Source: a virus
Taxonomy: Duplodnaviria; Heunggongvirae; Uroviricota; Caudoviricetes
Strand: one strand, 5' to 3'
DNA length: 36,249 nucleotides
IMG/VR virus record: IMGVR_UViG_3300043410_001642
Coordinates: 105,120-141,368 of that record
The position numbers and the translations under genes were made by a program. This document shows positions 9,486 through 27,050 of this stretch, one piece after another (position 1 is the first letter of the stretch; every line of letters begins with the position of its first letter). Below the pieces are notes generated by a model. That model was not told where the DNA came from and made no database searches. It saw only the letters and a program-made list of their open reading frames with translations.

Positions 9486-9571
9486 AGAGAGGTGGTAGAG
9501 TTGGTTGAATACACCGGTCTTGAAAACCGGCAGATGTAAAAGTCTCGGGGGTTCGAATCCCTCCCTCTCTG
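9486..9571 (+). tRNA. tRNA-Ser (anticodon TGA), type II; CCA not encoded
   Basis: Acceptor AGAGAGG/CCTCTCT, anticodon arm CCGGT-CT TGA AA-ACCGG, long variable arm, GTTCGAATCC T loop, G73. Confidence 0.95.
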
Positions 9572-9579
9572 CACTTAAT

Positions 9580-11571: not shown

Positions 11572-13218
<1,647 letters not shown>

Positions 13219-21837: not shown

Positions 21838-22104
21838 TTATTCTGAATCTAAACCTAACTCCATTAACTCCTCTTGGGCTTCTTTTGCTCCCTTAGAGAT
21901 TAACTTCTCTCCACATACTATATCGATTGCTCCAACCGCTTTAGCATAGTTGATGAACTTCTTACCGAATAGTTCCTTACCGAATGAAGGCCCTTTAGTA
22001 ATGATGACCATCTCTCCGAACTTCTCATGAGGGAATAACTCAATACGGAAGTTAGAATGTTTAGTGAAATACACACCCGCTTTGTCTAATTTGAAATCTT
22101 TCAT
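21838..22104 (-). CDS. Hypothetical early protein
   Basis: ORF track 88 aa. Confidence 0.75.
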   Translation of the reverse strand: MKDFKLDKAGVYFTKHSNFRIELFPHEKFGEMVIITKGPSFGKELFGKKFINYAKAVGAIDIVCGEKLISKGAKEAQEELMELGLDSE

Positions 22105-22126
22105 TTGTTTTATATTTTAAGTTTTA

Positions 22127-22339
22127 TTAATAAAAGAAACTATTCCAAGCAATAGAGTTAGGTACTGGATACTTAACACCTACAAGACCGGAGTCTATAA
22201 ACTTAGCATAGGGTGATGGTACTGATTCAAAAATTGAATACTCTTTACCTACTTTAATCAACTTACCTCTACAAGTTGGTGATTGGTTTTGAGAAGTCTC
22301 TTTCCCAATAACCGATTTTAATTCATTTATCTTATTCAT
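22127..22339 (-). CDS. Hypothetical early protein
   Basis: ORF track 70 aa, directly after a promoter-leader cassette. Confidence 0.75.
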   Translation of the reverse strand: MNKINELKSVIGKETSQNQSPTCRGKLIKVGKEYSIFESVPSPYAKFIDSGLVGVKYPVPNSIAWNSFFY

Positions 22340-22392
22340 ATCTTATCTCTTTGTTACATAGTAAAGGTAGGTAGTAGTTACGACATATCCAA
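22340..22392 (-). promoter_or_regulatory. Early-type promoter plus conserved leader (leftward)
   Basis: Minus strand TTGG-N19-TACCTTTA-ctatgtaacaaagagataagat-ATG. Confidence 0.8.
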
Positions 22393-22445
22393 GCATTTTC
22401 CAAACTTTTTTTAAAATAAAGTGAAAATAAAGTTATCCACATTGC

Positions 22446-22493
22446 TTGGATATATGATACTTTTTCCTTACCTTAGTAGGGCGGGCGGGAGGC
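22446..22493 (+). promoter_or_regulatory. Early-type promoter firing into a G-rich non-coding start
   Basis: TTGG-N19-TACCTTAG then tagggcgggcgggaggc. Confidence 0.65.
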
Positions 22494-22521
22494 TAGTATA
22501 TACCAATAGCAGCCGGTCATC

Positions 22522-22565
22522 GTAACTCACTGATAATCAATCCATTGTAACTCACTGATAATCAA
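22522..22565 (+). repeat. Two exact 19-bp boxes, 25-bp period
   Basis: GTAACTCACTGATAATCAA at 22522 and 22547. Confidence 0.9.
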
Positions 22566-22607
22566 GCGAGAATTTTGTAGGAAAAGTAAAAATAATTTAG
22601 TATATGC

Positions 22608-22662
22608 TTGGATATGTCCCAACTCCTTCCTATCTTTACTATGTAATCAAATGAGAGATACT
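22608..22662 (+). promoter_or_regulatory. Early-type promoter plus conserved leader
   Basis: TTGG-N19-TATCTTTA-ctatgtaatcaaatgagagatact-ATG. Confidence 0.85.
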
Positions 22663-22806
22663 ATGAAAAAGTCACTTCCTAAACATCGTAAGTTAATGAT
22701 GGAATCTTTAGAACTCCTATTCAATGGTAATAGAGTGGAGGCTAAGAAGAAGATTAAGAAGGCTAAAGTAGAGGTTGAGAAGTTTTATTCAGTAAAAAAT
22801 AAGTAA
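22663..22806 (+). CDS. 47-aa basic micro-protein
   Basis: MKKSLPKHRKLMMESLELLFNGNRVEAKKKIKKAKVEVEKFYSVKNK after the conserved leader. Confidence 0.7.
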   Translation: MKKSLPKHRKLMMESLELLFNGNRVEAKKKIKKAKVEVEKFYSVKNK

Positions 22807-22807
22807 T

Positions 22808-23029
22808 ATGAATATCAAGTTTTTAATTGAAAGGATGAGCGAAGAGAATGTAAAGAAATTGGAAAGCTATTGTGTTAAGTACCCTAATAGTGGCGGATGG
22901 TTAATGAATGAGTTAGCCAATCATTATTATTGGACGAACTTAACTTATGAGAGTATCGCTACCCTAAACGATGTATTGGATTGTGGGTGGAGACCTAACG
23001 ATATAGCTAACATCTTCAGCCGAAAATAA
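22808..23029 (+). CDS. Hypothetical early protein
   Basis: ORF track 73 aa. Confidence 0.7.
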   Translation: MNIKFLIERMSEENVKKLESYCVKYPNSGGWLMNELANHYYWTNLTYESIATLNDVLDCGWRPNDIANIFSRK

Positions 23030-23052
23030 TCAAAAAATAATTGAGAAAAGGC

Positions 23053-23106
23053 TTGGATATGTCAGGCCTATTCCCTACCTTTATTGAGTAATAAAAGATA
23101 AGAGAT
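23053..23106 (+). promoter_or_regulatory. Early-type promoter plus conserved leader
   Basis: TTGG-N19-TACCTTTA-ttgagtaataaaagataagagat-ATG. Confidence 0.85.
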
Positions 23107-23685
23107 ATGAAAAACAAAATGAAATTTAGTTATGCGGGTATGGAGTTTGAAGTTCCTGCCGCTTGTTTAAAGACCACTGATTATTGGGGTAAACCTTTAG
23201 AAACCCCTTACATCTCCATCGGTCGTAAAGAGGTTGCTTCTATTAGTAAGGCCTTTGTTAAAAAGAACTTTCCCAATGTGTTAGTGTGGGCTAGTTCAGA
23301 GGTATTTGCTAATGGTAACTCCGTTTCCGTAAATGTTTGTAATTCAGATGGTTCAGATTTGGATTACGAAAGCAAGGAATGGAAAACTATTGCTGGTTTC
23401 GTTAATTCTCTTTCCGGCGGTAAATACAACGGATGGGAAGATATCTATGAGTATGGACCGGCGGGTGAAACCGATAATGGTACTAAGTTAGAAAGTTATG
23501 CGAAGTATGTTCATATTAACAATTCTGCTCCGCATGGAAGTTGGCCTTCAGCAGTTAAGTGTTTGAAAGGATTGATTGCTGGTGAGTATGTGTTCGGTCC
23601 CCTTTCAGTTGAGAAAGCGATTGAGAAGGCTAAAGGGTATGGTTATTCAGAGAGTAATATTGAGAAAGCATTAAACTTAATTTAA
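23107..23685 (+). CDS. LPD29-like (large polyvalent protein-associated domain) protein
   Basis: KKNFPNVLVWASSEVFANGNSVSV...GGKYNGWEDIYEY resembles the LPD29 pattern. Confidence 0.55.
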   Translation: MKNKMKFSYAGMEFEVPAACLKTTDYWGKPLETPYISIGRKEVASISKAFVKKNFPNVLVWASSEVFANGNSVSVNVCNSDGSDLDYESKEWKTIAGFVNSLSGGKYNGWEDIYEYGPAGETDNGTKLESYAKYVHINNSAPHGSWPSAVKCLKGLIAGEYVFGPLSVEKAIEKAKGYGYSESNIEKALNLI

Positions 23686-23686
23686 T

Positions 23687-23929
23687 ATGAGAGCTACAAT
23701 CAAAAGAGAGAAGTTATTAAAGAATTCAGCCGGTCAGTACCGATATCTATTCAATTGGGTAGGTGGAGGGTTCAATGATGTGTGGGCTAAGAACCTTAAA
23801 GAGTTCAAAGCGGAGGTAAAACGCCAGTTTGGTAACTCCAATTTGAAGGTAAATTACGATACTCTCCATAAAGCTACGGCGAGTGGGAGTAATGAATGGG
23901 ATAAAGCCGGCAATATGATGTGCTGGTAA
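23687..23929 (+). CDS. Hypothetical early protein
   Basis: ORF track 80 aa. Confidence 0.7.
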   Translation: MRATIKREKLLKNSAGQYRYLFNWVGGGFNDVWAKNLKEFKAEVKRQFGNSNLKVNYDTLHKATASGSNEWDKAGNMMCW

Positions 23930-23932
23930 TTC

Positions 23933-23994
23933 ATAACTCATTGATTATCAATTAGTTGGATTTTCCAATCTATTAAGAATTTTTCTTAATAGAC
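23933..23994 (+). repeat. Dyad box plus two hairpins
   Basis: ATAACTCATTGATTATCAA 23933-23951; TTGG-atttt-CCAA; TCTATTAAGA-atttt-TCTTAATAGA. Confidence 0.75.
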
Positions 23995-24004
23995 TAGAAA
24001 ATGC

Positions 24005-24058
24005 TTGGAAAATTCAATTTATTTACATATCTTTACTATGTAATAAAAGATGAGAGTT
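24005..24058 (+). promoter_or_regulatory. Early-type promoter plus conserved leader
   Basis: TTGG-N19-TATCTTTA-ctatgtaataaaagatgagagtt-ATG. Confidence 0.85.
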
Positions 24059-24304
24059 ATGATAAACAGAAACAACAACGGAAACCTTAACGGAAGATAC
24101 CCAGAAGGGTACAAACCAAAGATTGAGTATTGGGAAGCTAAATACTATATGGCGTTAGAGGAAGGTATTAAGAGTTATAGAGCAGGTAATAGGAAAGGTG
24201 GGATGTATTGGAATGAGAAAGCTGCCTATGCCAGTGAGAAGATGAACTACTTTAAGGGGAAAGAGAAGGAGAGAATGGTAGGAGTTGAGAGTAGTATTTG
24301 GTAA
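24059..24304 (+). CDS. Hypothetical early protein (start corrected from 24050)
   Basis: Leader homology places the start at the second ATG. Confidence 0.7.
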   Translation: MINRNNNGNLNGRYPEGYKPKIEYWEAKYYMALEEGIKSYRAGNRKGGMYWNEKAAYASEKMNYFKGKEKERMVGVESSIW

Positions 24305-24327
24305 TTAAAAAAAATATTGAAAAAGAT

Positions 24328-24358
24328 TTGGAATATTGAAAAAGTTTCCTTATCTTTA
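24328..24358 (+). promoter_or_regulatory. Early-type promoter
   Basis: TTGG-N19-TATCTTTA. Confidence 0.75.
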
Positions 24359-24459
24359 CGAAGTAAAAAAAGGGAAGAATAGAGGCTCCCTAATATAAGA
24401 CCTCTAAACTTTAACAAACCCTCCCATCAGTAGGGATAATCAAACTGATAAACAATAAC

Positions 24460-24648
24460 ATGGCAAGAATGTCAAAAAAGAAAGCAACAACAATGTATGA
24501 GACAGTATCTCACAACATTCAAAAAATCACTTCTCCTTCTGGTACTATCAACTACCGTGTAAGAGTAGGATTCAATGGTGAAGTATTATCTCAATATGCT
24601 CCTTCTTTGAAGAAAGCTAAGGCTGTTAGAGCAGAATTATTGGGTTAA
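24460..24648 (+). CDS. Small basic protein, AP2/Arm-type DNA-binding-like
   Basis: NYRVRVGFNGEVLSQYAPSLKKAKAVRAEL: three strands plus helix pattern. Confidence 0.5.
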   Translation: MARMSKKKATTMYETVSHNIQKITSPSGTINYRVRVGFNGEVLSQYAPSLKKAKAVRAELLG

Positions 24649-24656
24649 TCCCACTC

Positions 24657-24692
24657 AAATAGGGGGAAACCTTTGGATTCTCCCTATTTTTC
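24657..24692 (+). terminator. Intrinsic terminator
   Basis: AAATAGGGGGAA...TTCTCCCTATTT 12-bp stem plus T run. Confidence 0.8.
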
Positions 24693-24744
24693 TTAAAAAA
24701 ATACAATTAATTTTAATATTTATATAAAACAAAACAACTAAAAC

Positions 24745-24912
24745 ATGAAAAAAGTATTAGCAATCGTAGCAATCGCTACATCATTAGTGGCTTGTGGTGG
24801 TGCTTCAACTGAAGTAAAGACAGATTCAACAGCCGTTTCAACCGATTCAACAGCAGTAGTAGCTGATTCAACAACTGCACCAGCAGCTGCTGACACAATC
24901 GCTACTAAGTAA
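24745..24912 (+). CDS. 55-aa lipoprotein with DST repeats
   Basis: MKKVLAIVAIATSLVAC lipobox (Cys17), then DSTAVSTDSTAVVADSTT...ADTI; not in ORF track. Confidence 0.85.
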   Translation: MKKVLAIVAIATSLVACGGASTEVKTDSTAVSTDSTAVVADSTTAPAAADTIATK

Positions 24913-24931
24913 GATAATAAAGATTACTTTA

Positions 24932-25018
24932 AGGGTGGGTAAGTAGGAAACATCTTCAATTGCAGTTCTATTCTCTCTTTTACTCTTTTATTACAATAAA
25001 GTTTCTTACATTATACCT
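24932..25018 (+). ncRNA. Candidate antisense/3'UTR RNA element
   Basis: GTAAG..GGAAAC pairs with GTTTCTTAC, closing a pyrimidine-rich loop complementary to early leaders. Confidence 0.45.
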
Positions 25019-25050
25019 AACGGAGGTTGAGAAGACAGCCTCCGTTTTTC
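25019..25050 (+). terminator. Intrinsic terminator
   Basis: AACGGAGGTTG-agaaga-CAGCCTCCGTT plus T run. Confidence 0.85.
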
Positions 25051-25087
25051 TGTGTCCCATTCTATTTATAGAGGAACAAAGATAATT

Positions 25088-25118
25088 TTGGTTTTTTGGT
25101 TGTTTTTTCGTATCTTTG
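25088..25118 (+). promoter_or_regulatory. Promoter
   Basis: TTGG-N19-TATCTTTG. Confidence 0.8.
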
Positions 25119-25138
25119 TAGAGTATAAACCTATTATT

Positions 25139-25549
25139 ATGAGCAGAATATACCTTAAAACACCGGCACAACCATTAGGAAGGAGAACATTGGGTAGAAT
25201 TGCTCATATGACAATCACTTGGTGCAAGAAAAACTTAGGAATTAACCAACGAAAGGCCTATCAGCCCATCTGGTCCCTATCATCATACAACGGAGATTCT
25301 AAACTTTGCGGAGATTATGATGATGTAGAGAATGAAATTACTATATACTATAAGAACATAGATGATGTCAGAGAATTAGTAGCAACTATTATACACGAAT
25401 GGACACATCAGAACCAACCTTGTCGTTCCAAATACAAAAAGTGGAAGGGTTCATATAAGACCAACCCATTAGAGGTGGAGGCCTATGCAGCAGAGAGATT
25501 ATATACCTCCCATTGTTGGAATGAGATAAAGGGTAAGGTTAATCGGTAA
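25139..25549 (+). CDS. Zn metallopeptidase-like (HEXXH) protein (start corrected from 25052)
   Basis: IIHEWTH plus NPLEVEA third-ligand motif. Confidence 0.75.
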   Translation: MSRIYLKTPAQPLGRRTLGRIAHMTITWCKKNLGINQRKAYQPIWSLSSYNGDSKLCGDYDDVENEITIYYKNIDDVRELVATIIHEWTHQNQPCRSKYKKWKGSYKTNPLEVEAYAAERLYTSHCWNEIKGKVNR

Positions 25550-25567
25550 AAATAAATCGGTTTTCTC

Positions 25568-25617
25568 TTGGATTTCTCATACTTTTTTATTACCTTTATA
25601 GGGCGGCAGGGCGGGAG
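25568..25617 (+). promoter_or_regulatory. Early-type promoter firing into a G-rich non-coding start
   Basis: TTGG-N19-TACCTTTA then tagggcggcagggcgggag. Confidence 0.65.
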
Positions 25618-25639
25618 TAGATACCCATTAACCCTTTCC

Positions 25640-25683
25640 ATAACTCGCTGATTCCCAACAACTTGTAACTCGTTGATTCTCAA
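25640..25683 (+). repeat. Two degenerate 19-bp boxes, 25-bp period
   Basis: ATAACTCGCTGATTCCCAA and GTAACTCGTTGATTCTCAA. Confidence 0.8.
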
Positions 25684-25724
25684 TCGAGTTTTTTTGTTTT
25701 TTCCAAAGATTTTTACCTATATGC

Positions 25725-25779
25725 TTGGGTTATGTTACCTTTTGCCCTATCTTTACTATGTAATCAAATGAGAGATACT
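25725..25779 (+). promoter_or_regulatory. Early-type promoter plus leader identical to the 22629 copy
   Basis: TTGG-N19-TATCTTTA; 39-nt identity 25746-25784 versus 22629-22667. Confidence 0.85.
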
Positions 25780-25890
25780 ATGAATGAGACAATAACAATC
25801 GGAGAGACATTATTAGTTACCTTATTCACCTTTGTGTGTATTATAGGGTATGTGTTCGTTAAAACAATTTTAGAATCAAAAAATAAGTAA
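25780..25890 (+). CDS. 36-aa membrane micro-protein
   Basis: MNETITIGETLLVTLFTFVCIIGYVFVKTILESKNK. Confidence 0.7.
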   Translation: MNETITIGETLLVTLFTFVCIIGYVFVKTILESKNK

Positions 25891-25891
25891 T

Positions 25892-26068
25892 ATGAGTAAG
25901 AAAATAACAAAAGTAGTAAAAGAACCCAAAGTATCTAATGCCGGCAGTGATGCTATCTTTTTTGCCGGTCAATACCCCGATTGGATGACTAAGAAGACAG
26001 ACTTAGAGTGGGTAAAGTATATGAATAAGAAGTATGGGTTTGAATGGAATGGTAAAGACACTAAATAA
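25892..26068 (+). CDS. 58-aa hypothetical protein
   Basis: MSKKITKVVKEPKVSNAG...; below track cutoff. Confidence 0.65.
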   Translation: MSKKITKVVKEPKVSNAGSDAIFFAGQYPDWMTKKTDLEWVKYMNKKYGFEWNGKDTK

Positions 26069-26074
26069 CATTAT

Positions 26075-26182
26075 ATGAGTAGAGCAATTAAGGCTTATGT
26101 GGAGGCCATATATCCACAACAACCTTCTTTTTCCGAAATCTTTTTTGAGAAAATGCTTGGTTTATTCAAACTTTTTTCGTAA
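26075..26182 (+). pseudogene. Short ORF running into a promoter (possible truncated gene)
   Basis: MSRAIKAYVEAIYPQQ then reads through promoter sequence and stops in the -7 box. Confidence 0.35.
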
Positions 26183-26204
26183 TATTACAATGTACTAAGA
26201 GATA
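26157..26204 (+). promoter_or_regulatory. Variant early promoter plus leader
   Basis: TTGG-N19-TAATATTA-caatgtactaagagata. Confidence 0.6.
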
Positions 26205-26432
26205 ATGATTATGGAAAGTTTAGTTGATGTGAGAGGTATGAGTGTTAATGAGTATTGTGACTTCGTAGTGAGTCGGGCAATGCATTTGAGAGTTTCTCCA
26301 TTTGAGTTGAATATGGAGTATTGCTTCGAGCGAGGTTTGATTTCTGATGAGATGTATGAGAAGGCGAAGTGGGAGATGAATGCCAGAAGAAATGATTCAT
26401 TTTGGTTAGAGAGAGGTGAGGTGGTTAGATAA
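26205..26432 (+). CDS. Hypothetical early protein
   Basis: ORF track 75 aa. Confidence 0.7.
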   Translation: MIMESLVDVRGMSVNEYCDFVVSRAMHLRVSPFELNMEYCFERGLISDEMYEKAKWEMNARRNDSFWLERGEVVR

Positions 26433-26466
26433 TCAAAGCGGACACAAAAAATAATTTAGTTAAAAT

Positions 26467-26760
26467 ATGAGTAGTATAAGAGAAAGGTTACAAGAAGGTA
26501 GAGATAGAGTAGTAAGAGAGTTAGAAGAGAATACACCAGTATTAAACATATGTGATGTAATGGATTGGATATATTGGACATGGGAGAAAGAACCCTTCAG
26601 TATGCCCTATGAGTGGGAGAGTAAGAAGATAGAACAATTTTGTAAAAACTTCCAATTGTACCTGTATGAGGAGAGTAGAGAAAACTTTTCCCCATATGTA
26701 GGAGCAGATAGAGTGAGTAGAGGAAGGTATAAGGGGGTAGTATTAGGTGATTTAAGTTAA
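26467..26760 (+). CDS. Hypothetical protein
   Basis: ORF track 97 aa. Confidence 0.7.
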   Translation: MSSIRERLQEGRDRVVRELEENTPVLNICDVMDWIYWTWEKEPFSMPYEWESKKIEQFCKNFQLYLYEESRENFSPYVGADRVSRGRYKGVVLGDLS

Positions 26761-26771
26761 AAACCAATTAT

Positions 26772-26954
26772 ATGAGTAATGTAACAATTGAGGTATTAGA
26801 GAGAGTGGAGGCCGAGAGGGCAGAAACTATGTCTAAGGCCGAATTCGTAAAATGGATGGCAGAGTTAAATGTGGGTAGACTGTATGAAGACCCTACCGGC
26901 AGATTAAAAGCAAGAGAGATTATGAGTGAGTATGTATTCAAAAAGAGGGGTTAG
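26772..26954 (+). CDS. Hypothetical protein; probable paralog of 33901..34086
   Basis: EFVKWMAELNV..YEDP versus EFNNWCKAVGV..YNDP. Confidence 0.6.
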   Translation: MSNVTIEVLERVEAERAETMSKAEFVKWMAELNVGRLYEDPTGRLKAREIMSEYVFKKRG

Positions 26955-26984
26955 GTTTTATGTAAACGCTAAATGCTTTTTGGT

Positions 26985-27050
26985 GGTGAGAGGGCGTGGG
27001 GGTGACAAATATATTTGGGTTGATCTTTCCCACATACGGAAAAAATATAT
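26985..27050. other. G-tract plus CACATACGGAAAAAA intergenic element
   Basis: GAGAGGGCGTGGGGGTG...CCCACATACGGAAAAAATAT; CACATACGGA also at 21291-21300. Confidence 0.5.

Follow-up and report, generated by a model that had tools for sequence, protein, structure and literature searches.

We analyzed the final 36 kb (36,249 nucleotides [nt]; here called the window) of a 141-kb virus contig in IMG/VR (IMGVR_UViG_3300043410_001642), which has 32% G+C and carries nearly all of its genes on the + strand. At the locus described here, a terminator hairpin (24659-24692) marks the upstream limit of an open reading frame for a 55-amino-acid (55-aa) lipoprotein with the lipobox LVAC (24745-24912, + strand). 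Its stop codon (24910-24912) is followed by an intrinsic terminator (25020-25050) and then by a + strand gene for a 136-aa HExxH zincin-like protein (25139-25549), which has its own promoter (TTTGG at 25087-25091 and TATCTTTG at 25111-25118). Between the lipoprotein stop and the terminator there is no promoter consensus, and an earlier note on this DNA had proposed that this interval specifies an antisense RNA directed at the leaders of a family of phage genes. Comparison of related sequences leaves us highly confident that positions 24937 to 25050, in the 3′ untranslated region (UTR) of the lipoprotein gene, represent a real, new, and conserved structured RNA of the + strand. That this RNA represses some of the leaders by base pairing is the best single explanation of its loop, and we propose it tentatively.

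Covariance model R1 gave the element 149 bits at 24937-25050 and found no second copy in the 141-kb genome. The outer helix, P0, pairs GGGT (24937-24940) with ACCT (25015-25018) over 4 base pairs (bp). Within it, P1 pairs GTAGGAAAC (24943-24951) with GTTTCTTAC (25001-25009) over 9 bp, one of them G·U, and encloses a 49-nt pyrimidine-rich loop; the P1 and P0 pairings were taken from the model alignment. The 3′ strands of the two helices, separated by a 5-nt internal loop, occupy 25001-25018. The large loop contains TCTTC (24953-24957), which forms a 5-bp pseudoknot with GAAGA (25031-25035) in the apical loop of the terminator, and an invariant 24-nt pyrimidine core (24972-24995). The terminator, functional only on the + strand, has a 10-bp stem, the loop AGAAGA, and a T-run confined to that strand. 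A stem and terminator around a loop of ~49 nt had been recognized in the earlier note; a contiguous 9-bp P1 plus a 4-bp P0 describes the stem better. The 5′ end of the element is unmapped and possibly reaches back to 24913.

A locus search with the 136-aa downstream protein alone returned nothing; the loci came from the 192-aa product of a neighboring gene, which retrieved five viral contigs, and from protein alignments. The 136-aa protein had 88 homologues, through which 80 metagenomic loci were fetched, and further loci were added by exact look-ups. Because the loci were fetched through this protein, their retrieval was blind to the RNA. Loci were assigned to group 1 (47 loci, 33 distinct sequences) if their protein had at least 61% identity and to group 2 if it had ~50 to 57%. 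All group-1 relatives have, upstream of the element, an orthologue of the lipoprotein that shares its signal peptide and lipobox. An exact scan of viral contigs with a 22-nt core found only three relatives that were already known. No copy turned up when the covariance model was run on the records behind L003 and L004, which are ~30% complete and hence uninformative.

Upstream of the zincin-like gene, every group-1 locus carries TCTCTCTTTTACTCTTTTATTACA, apart from L061-63, which have an A>G variant, and L035/36, which have a deletion at the 5′ edge. The loop is thus conserved in relatives, its core being identical in nearly all group-1 loci. Mean column identity around the core is 63% across 148 nt, and DNA identity in the lipoprotein gene is ~70%. 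The earlier note had cautioned that the complementarity to the leaders, which runs into the CTTTA of a -7 box, might mark a dead inverted copy of a promoter cassette. This caveat falls away: the element is not a decaying cassette copy, because the core is invariant while the flanks, stems, terminator, and neighboring genes diverge. The extension of the match into the -7 box is not kept in relatives (L016, for example, has CTTAT), and conservation ends at the complement of TGTAA, close to where transcription should begin.

We next aligned 45 elements to a covariance model built from a hand-anchored structure. The alignment is fitted to the nested structure and hence favors nested pairs: 95% of pair cells were paired and all 23 nested pairs showed changes on both sides, with 37 to 47% paired in slid controls and none of 500 shuffles reaching the observed pairing values. 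In P0, 4 of 4 pairs vary on both sides and 90% are paired; relatives have GAGT/ACTC, TAGTG/CACTA, and GGTA/TACC. In P1, the figures are 9 of 9 and 94%, and the arms remain complementary though divergent (GTAAGAAAC/GTTTCTTAC, GTTAGATTAT/ATAATCTAAC, GTAGATTAC/GTAATCTAC, and GTAGGG(t)TAC/GTACCCTAC). All 10 terminator pairs covary. G·U pairs far outnumber A·C mismatches (19 versus 4 in P1 and 25 versus 3 in the terminator), which assigns the fold to RNA of the + strand. The minus-strand fold was no better than shuffles (z = -0.7).

The pseudoknot provided a comparison outside the fitted pairs. In the elements, the 5 to 7 nt after the 5′ arm of P1 complement the apical loop of the terminator, and both segments covary. 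These columns, which the model does not fit, were 97.6% paired, with UA18/CG14 and CG19/GC9/UA4 at two pairs; two of the five pairs change on both sides. The mean complement of each loop to its own partner was 5.64 nt, compared with 4.07 ± 0.14 nt for permuted partners, and 0 of 5,000 permutations reached the observed value. More than 10 distinct compensated variants occur, among them TCTTCC/GGAAGA, TCTCC/GGAGA, TCTTTC/GAAAGA, and TCCTC/GAGGA in group 1 and TCTCGG/CCGAGA, TCTTGG/CCAAGA, TATCGG/CCGATA, TCTCGAA/TTCGAGA, and TTCCAT/ATGGAA in group 2. These data support the conclusion that 24937-25050 encodes a discrete, folded + strand RNA under strong selection, in which the loop is unpaired ahead of the terminator.

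Several other treatments of the element were discarded. The minimum-energy fold of the window RNA as a single sequence gave another pairing for the 5′ part and was dropped in favor of the comparative structure. RNAalifold, run on a MAFFT alignment of 4 sequences, put the stem arms out of register and returned a consensus that made no sense; it was replaced by the hand-anchored structure and the covariance model. Coding potential of the core was ruled out on either strand, since the flanks differ by indels of 1 to 4 nt and the arms covary. TTTAC repeats in the loop resemble a -7 box on the same strand, and the idea of a promoter mimic was rejected because their spacing is unlike that of TAnnTTTG. 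At the gathering thresholds of Rfam 15, neither the element in the window nor those of 8 related loci had a match; at permissive E values, the best were SQ2397 (21.5 bits; threshold, 100) and GibS (18.9 bits; threshold, 115). The group-2 element likewise had no Rfam match.

Two studies together provided six metatranscriptome runs, freshwater or aquatic, whose assembled contigs cover parts of the stretch; the contigs give neither strand, 5′ end, nor level. In one run of a freshwater metatranscriptome, a 255-nt contig from a relative covers the equivalent of 24789-25017 (the 3′ half of the lipoprotein gene plus the element) and continues into a variant terminator hairpin, where the contig ends. 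Contigs of the upstream 62-aa gene, found in both studies, start at 24457, 24458, or 24500 and stop at 24650 or 24683, at the terminator hairpin 24659-24692. Stretches without contig cover, such as that from 25056 onward, are uninformative. The contig ends are compatible with a + strand transcript that terminates at 25046-25050. The element shares its terminator with the upstream gene, the layout by which 3′-end-derived small RNAs (sRNAs) are recognized, and all group-1 relatives have this layout.

In group 2, the loop is different and nearly invariant (GCATCTCG..TTACT..AATGGTTATTCTCCGATTT(T)ACTTTACA). The architecture is that of group 1, with a compensated stem, a pseudoknot between loop and terminator, the terminator itself, and the same gene downstream. 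With the group-1 model, the group-2 elements are found at the expected position (28 to 49 bits; E values, 3e-7 to 7e-3). In five group-2 loci, a tRNA-Gly(UCC) gene lies upstream and ends exactly at the start of the element (L078:274-350, L082:1100-1176, L096:257-328, L102:2794-2867, and L103:2799-2870). Other group-2 loci (for example, L023, L025, L027, and L085) have a remnant minihelix of T-arm and acceptor, ending in TCCA, TCTA, or TCAA, that neither ARAGORN nor Rfam calls. Because the RNA follows an mRNA in one lineage and a tRNA in another, it is a unit in its own right. A second hairpin (GGCGGTA...TACCGCC) lies upstream in three group-2 loci (L027:~1200-1260, L099:~2760-2800, and L107:~2760-2800); its loop repeats TGGTTATTCTC, a motif of the main loop, which suggests that part of the element was duplicated in tandem.

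The candidate targets are genes expressed from a repeated promoter cassette with the consensus GCTTGG-N22-CTTTA followed by (c/t)TAtGTAATmAAA..GAGAgAT..ATG. The window contains five copies, and the genome upstream of it has at least three others. The complements described in the earlier note can be read directly from the sequence: TCTTTTATTACA (24984-24995), at the 3′ end of the core, is the exact reverse complement of TGTAATAAAAGA (24039-24050) and matches 23088-23098 over 11 nt, and TCTCTT (24974-24979) opposes AAGAGA (23100-23105). The strongest predicted target in the window is the cassette of the 192-aa gene (23051-23109, + strand; leader, 23084-23106; ATG, 23107), whose leader forms an 11 + 7 bp duplex with one bulge, gains -12.4 kcal/mol on cofolding, and ranks 2nd of 224 start regions. 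It is followed by the cassette of the 84/81-aa gene (24003-24061, + strand; leader, 24036-24058; ATGs, 24050 and 24059), which contains the 12-nt complement and gains -11.4 kcal/mol. In these two best targets, 18 bp with one bulge extend from approximately the first transcribed base to position -3. Exact 12-nt complements occur in three leaders and an 11-nt complement occurs in a fourth. The other window cassettes, at 22606-22665 (+ strand; leader variant GTAATCAAATGAGAGA), 25723-25782 (+ strand; the same leader variant), and 22337-22394 (minus strand; divergent, with leader GTAACAAAGAGATAAG), are weak predicted targets. For the first of these, the longest complement is 6 nt (-9.7 kcal/mol) and the cofold gain is -5.4 kcal/mol. 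The partial pairing that the earlier note had seen with the leaders at 22640, 25757, and 22340 (minus strand) is thus present and weak, with cofold gains of -5 to -7 kcal/mol.

Three further observations concern the cassettes themselves. Outside the window, copies lie at G000:C1 92701, 93676, 96772, and 104722, and two of these bear the 12-nt TGTAATAAAAGA. Several leaders have an in-frame ATG 9 to 12 nt before the conserved one (22651/22663 and 24050/24059), and the true start codons of the small cassette genes are ambiguous. Paired GTAACTCACTGATAATCAA-like dyad boxes upstream of two cassettes (22525-22565 and 25640-25690) are possible operators at which a DNA-binding protein could regulate the cassette promoters.

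We then asked how far the complementarity exceeds chance. A single 12-nt match of A/T-rich sequence is not rare: the 141-kb genome has seven loop matches of at least 12 nt, four of them in coding sequence. The caution of the earlier note that such matches arise easily therefore holds for any one match. The other three of the seven are all in cassette leaders and at the same position. When dinucleotide-shuffled loops were compared with 8 leaders, the mean longest match was exceeded in 2 of 2,000 shuffles, a match of at least 12 nt arose in 31, and the mean duplex energy was reached in 35. When the 224 start regions of the genome were ranked by duplex energy with the core, the cassettes took ranks 1, 2, 6, 11, 21, 24, and 83 (Mann-Whitney P = 8e-5). 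The two groups also differ in their matches. The group-1 loop has exact matches of at least 10 nt to 16 group-1 and 0 group-2 start regions, and the group-2 loop has such matches to 7 group-2 and 1 group-1 start regions; shuffled loops exceeded these values in 30 (group 1) and 49 (group 2) of 2,000 trials, and the swapped combinations were not enriched. Loop and start regions therefore differ together between the groups, although this amounts to just two independent comparisons, the core being invariant within group 1. In L061-63, the A>G variant of the core still pairs with an unchanged leader, as G·U.

Taken together, these data suggest the following model. The RNA is the 3′ end of the lipoprotein transcript, with P0 and P1 stacked around the 49-nt loop and the pseudoknot between loop and terminator leaving the 24-nt pyrimidine tract unpaired. 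In the window phage it may be freed from the lipoprotein mRNA or left after decay of that mRNA, accumulating as a stable 3′-end-derived species; in group 2, tRNA 3′ processing would release it and so define its 5′ end. Through its exposed loop, it could then base-pair in trans with the mRNAs of some GCTTGG-N22-CTTTA cassette genes, at their ~22-nt leaders; the duplex would extend from near the first transcribed base (GUAAUAAAAGA) as far as the purine tract before the AUG. With the whole leader covered, initiation would be blocked, decay triggered, or both. Such repression of a subset of the leaders is plausible, though we hold it to be short of an even chance. A wider formulation is somewhat more speculative: that these elements constitute a new family of chaperone-independent RNAs in freshwater phages of Bacteroidota type, each using a terminator-anchored pseudoknot scaffold to present a long, invariant pyrimidine tract that hybridizes with whole leaders (in group 2, with first codons) of the phage's own genes and switches off cassette genes, as an RNA counterpart of T4 RegA/RegB, maybe coupled to the zincin-like protein.

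Several points weigh against pairing with the leaders as the function of the loop. The P values from shuffling are just 0.001 to 0.03, and the match was originally found by seeking it. The mean duplex energy of the reversed loop (-13.3 kcal/mol) nearly equals that observed (-14.0 kcal/mol), so most of the duplex energy is generic pyrimidine:purine pairing. The energetic part of the original antisense proposal hence barely exceeds this control, even though few shuffles reach the observed energy, and what stands of that proposal is the + strand RNA and the top-ranked leaders. Strong pairing is predicted for approximately half of the cassette family and the other half pair poorly, three of the five window leaders gaining just -5 to -7 kcal/mol; silencing of the whole family, as first envisaged, does not agree with this. 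The leaders are paralogues and represent about one independent target. An invariant stretch of 24 to 29 nt is far more than a seed for variable leaders needs, and UAUUCUC...UUUAC, which is common to both groups, is not part of the 12-nt match. The group-2 sites are at coding starts (ATGAGTAAGAGTAAAGTAAAT, the first codons of MSKSKVN-type genes), where codon constraints could be the source of the complementarity, and the two matching segments are in noncollinear order. The RNA evidence consists of assembled contigs only, which show no strand, 5′ end, or abundance. The tight linkage to the downstream zincin-like gene suggests another role, and “early” and “switch,” as applied to these genes and this RNA, are labels rather than findings.

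Some of these points speak for an RNA that acts in trans through its loop on a protein or another RNA and not on the leaders. Candidate partners are the adjacent zincin-like protein, for which the RNA might be a cofactor, inhibitor, or sponge; a host RNA-binding or ribosomal protein; and a host RNA. An unpaired, invariant run of 24 to 29 nt exceeds what variable antisense targets would demand, and the part of the loop shared by both subgroups is UAUUCUC...UUUAC, the leader-matching 3′ part being specific to group 1. The neighboring protein, an ORFan, has an invariant HEWxH, conserved Glu residues, and a Glu downstream of HExxH. It belongs to no Pfam family, and a profile search against PDB sequences gave nothing meaningful; its predicted fold is confidently that of a minimal zincin (predicted local distance difference test score, 91.8). 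Foldseek against PDB gave weak matches to selecase, Wss1, CapP, and IrrE/PprI. Among these are several proteases that single-stranded nucleic acid switches on. These structural matches have E values above 0.01 and template modeling scores of 0.4 to 0.5, however, and the partner is hypothetical. The group-specific complementarity to the phage's own start regions, which was observed, is not predicted by an unrelated partner. We regard a partner other than the leaders as unlikely.

A second alternative is that the element is a cis-acting 5′ leader of the zincin-like gene (a regulated terminator, an attenuator, or a protein-binding operator) and that the complementarity to the cassette leaders is incidental. 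The element lies directly upstream of the zincin-like gene in ~77 of 80 metagenomic loci, even though the upstream neighbor switches from the lipoprotein gene to tRNA-Gly or its remnant. Since the loci were found through the protein, this linkage is partly ascertainment and ordinary synteny. In type-B and group-2 relatives, the ATG is ~25 nt past the terminator; because there is no promoter between the two, the gene is reached only by terminator read-through. In contrast, the window and all other type-A relatives have a canonical TTTGG-N19-TATCTTTG promoter after the terminator, and the element is still invariant. The terminator loop belongs to the conserved fold, but we saw no antiterminator pairing exclusive with the terminator stem, and the pseudoknot contacts the apical loop alone. 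The link to tRNA among the group-2 elements speaks for a small RNA that is released. We consider a cis-acting leader quite improbable.

The last alternative, a minus-strand inverted cassette (a dead copy, a promoter whose transcript would be antisense to the lipoprotein gene, or an operator of double-stranded DNA that the cassettes also have), is very improbable and largely refuted. On the minus strand, CTTTATTGTAATAAAAGAG...GAGAGAATAG resembles CTTTA-nnnn-GTAATAAAAGA-n-GAGAGATATG, and type-B relatives have a TACTTTTA box plus CTCGG at approximately the right spacing; against this, there is no minus-strand GCTTGG -33 element, its position being filled by the terminator stem, the -7-like box is variable (AAACTTTA, AAACTTAT, TACTTTTA, and TACTTTA), relatives do not keep the short minus-strand ORF, a dead copy would not stay invariant while its flanks diverge by ~35%, and the covarying stems and pseudoknot, the + strand excess of G·U over A·C, and the minus-strand z value all place the structure on the other strand.

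Returning to repression of the leaders by base pairing, the closest known phage system is the c4 antisense RNA of phages P1 and P7, a structured RNA whose loop-exposed complements pair near the ribosome-binding site of the phage's own mRNA (PMC12197685). Like c4, the element is phage encoded, structured, and would act independently of a chaperone, and tRNA-type processing of c4 from a longer transcript resembles the arrangement of the tRNA-Gly-linked group 2. An RNase P step in the maturation of c4 RNA was reportedly described by Hartmann et al. in 1995. Unlike the element, which has several dispersed candidate targets, c4 lies in the operon of its single target, icd-ant, and serves lysogenic immunity. 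The element also differs in being an mRNA 3′ end or a tRNA trailer, in its pseudoknot between loop and terminator, and in its Bacteroidota-type host, and it has no sequence or Rfam relationship to c4.

Other parallels come from host-encoded RNAs. CpxQ, SroC, and DapZ, from mRNA 3′ UTRs, and 3′ETS-leuZ, from a tRNA trailer, are 3′-end-derived sRNAs that depend on Hfq and use short seeds. The element shares with them a terminator held in common with the upstream gene, a seed just before the terminator hairpin, and the same two sources, an mRNA 3′ UTR in the window and a tRNA 3′ trailer in group 2. It differs in that its candidate seed is a 24-nt invariant tract in a closed, pseudoknotted loop, and its release from the parent transcript is inferred. 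Region R1 of GcvB, also host encoded and Hfq dependent and expressed from a free-standing gene, is G/U-rich and pairs with C/A-rich leaders. The likeness lies in a long (~30 nt), conserved, single-stranded tract of biased composition facing oppositely biased leaders of many mRNAs before their start codons; in base composition, origin, Hfq dependence, and gene organization GcvB differs, and it has no homology to the element. In phage T4, RegA is a translational repressor protein and RegB an endoribonuclease. If the antisense proposal is true, the outcome would resemble theirs, a set of early phage mRNAs shut off at their initiation regions, with an RNA as effector in place of a protein.

Little is known of how Bacteroidota and their phages control genes post-transcriptionally. 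Bacteroidota make little use of Shine-Dalgarno pairing and, to our knowledge, generally lack Hfq. With three helices, a covarying pseudoknot, ~80 metagenomic instances, and two subfamilies, the new RNA is suited to structural work and to an Rfam entry. The hypothesis that it pairs with a repeated leader just 1 to 2 kb away is simple and falsifiable. If it is true, one small RNA would coordinate a phage family of promoter-cassette genes, and phages would have recruited mRNA 3′ UTRs and tRNA trailers alike for the same regulator. If the link to the leaders fails, the tight linkage to the zincin-like gene would point to an uncharacterized RNA-protein module.

Three classes of feature point to a Bacteroidota-type host for the phage: promoters of the type TTTG-N19-TAnnTTTG, a lipoprotein tail with a Bacteroidota-style glycosylation motif, and a phage-encoded GroEL chaperonin (11584-13218; ~62% identity to bacterial GroL) whose relatives include many from Flavobacterium and Bacteroides phages. 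Genes near the element had no Pfam match and no informative PHROG match. Among cultured phage records, there was no match to 22000-27000 (megablast) or to the HExxH protein (tblastn), and hence there is no cultured relative or published transcriptome that could be used. Elsewhere in the window, both ARAGORN and Rfam call a tRNA-Ser(UGA) gene at 9486-9572. A second conserved promoter type, TTTCGTATCTTTACGAAGTAA, is common to the genome of the window phage and those of group-2 phages. A sigma-70-like sequence, TTAACA-N18-GATAAT, lies at 24411-24440, upstream of the 62-aa gene (24460-24648).

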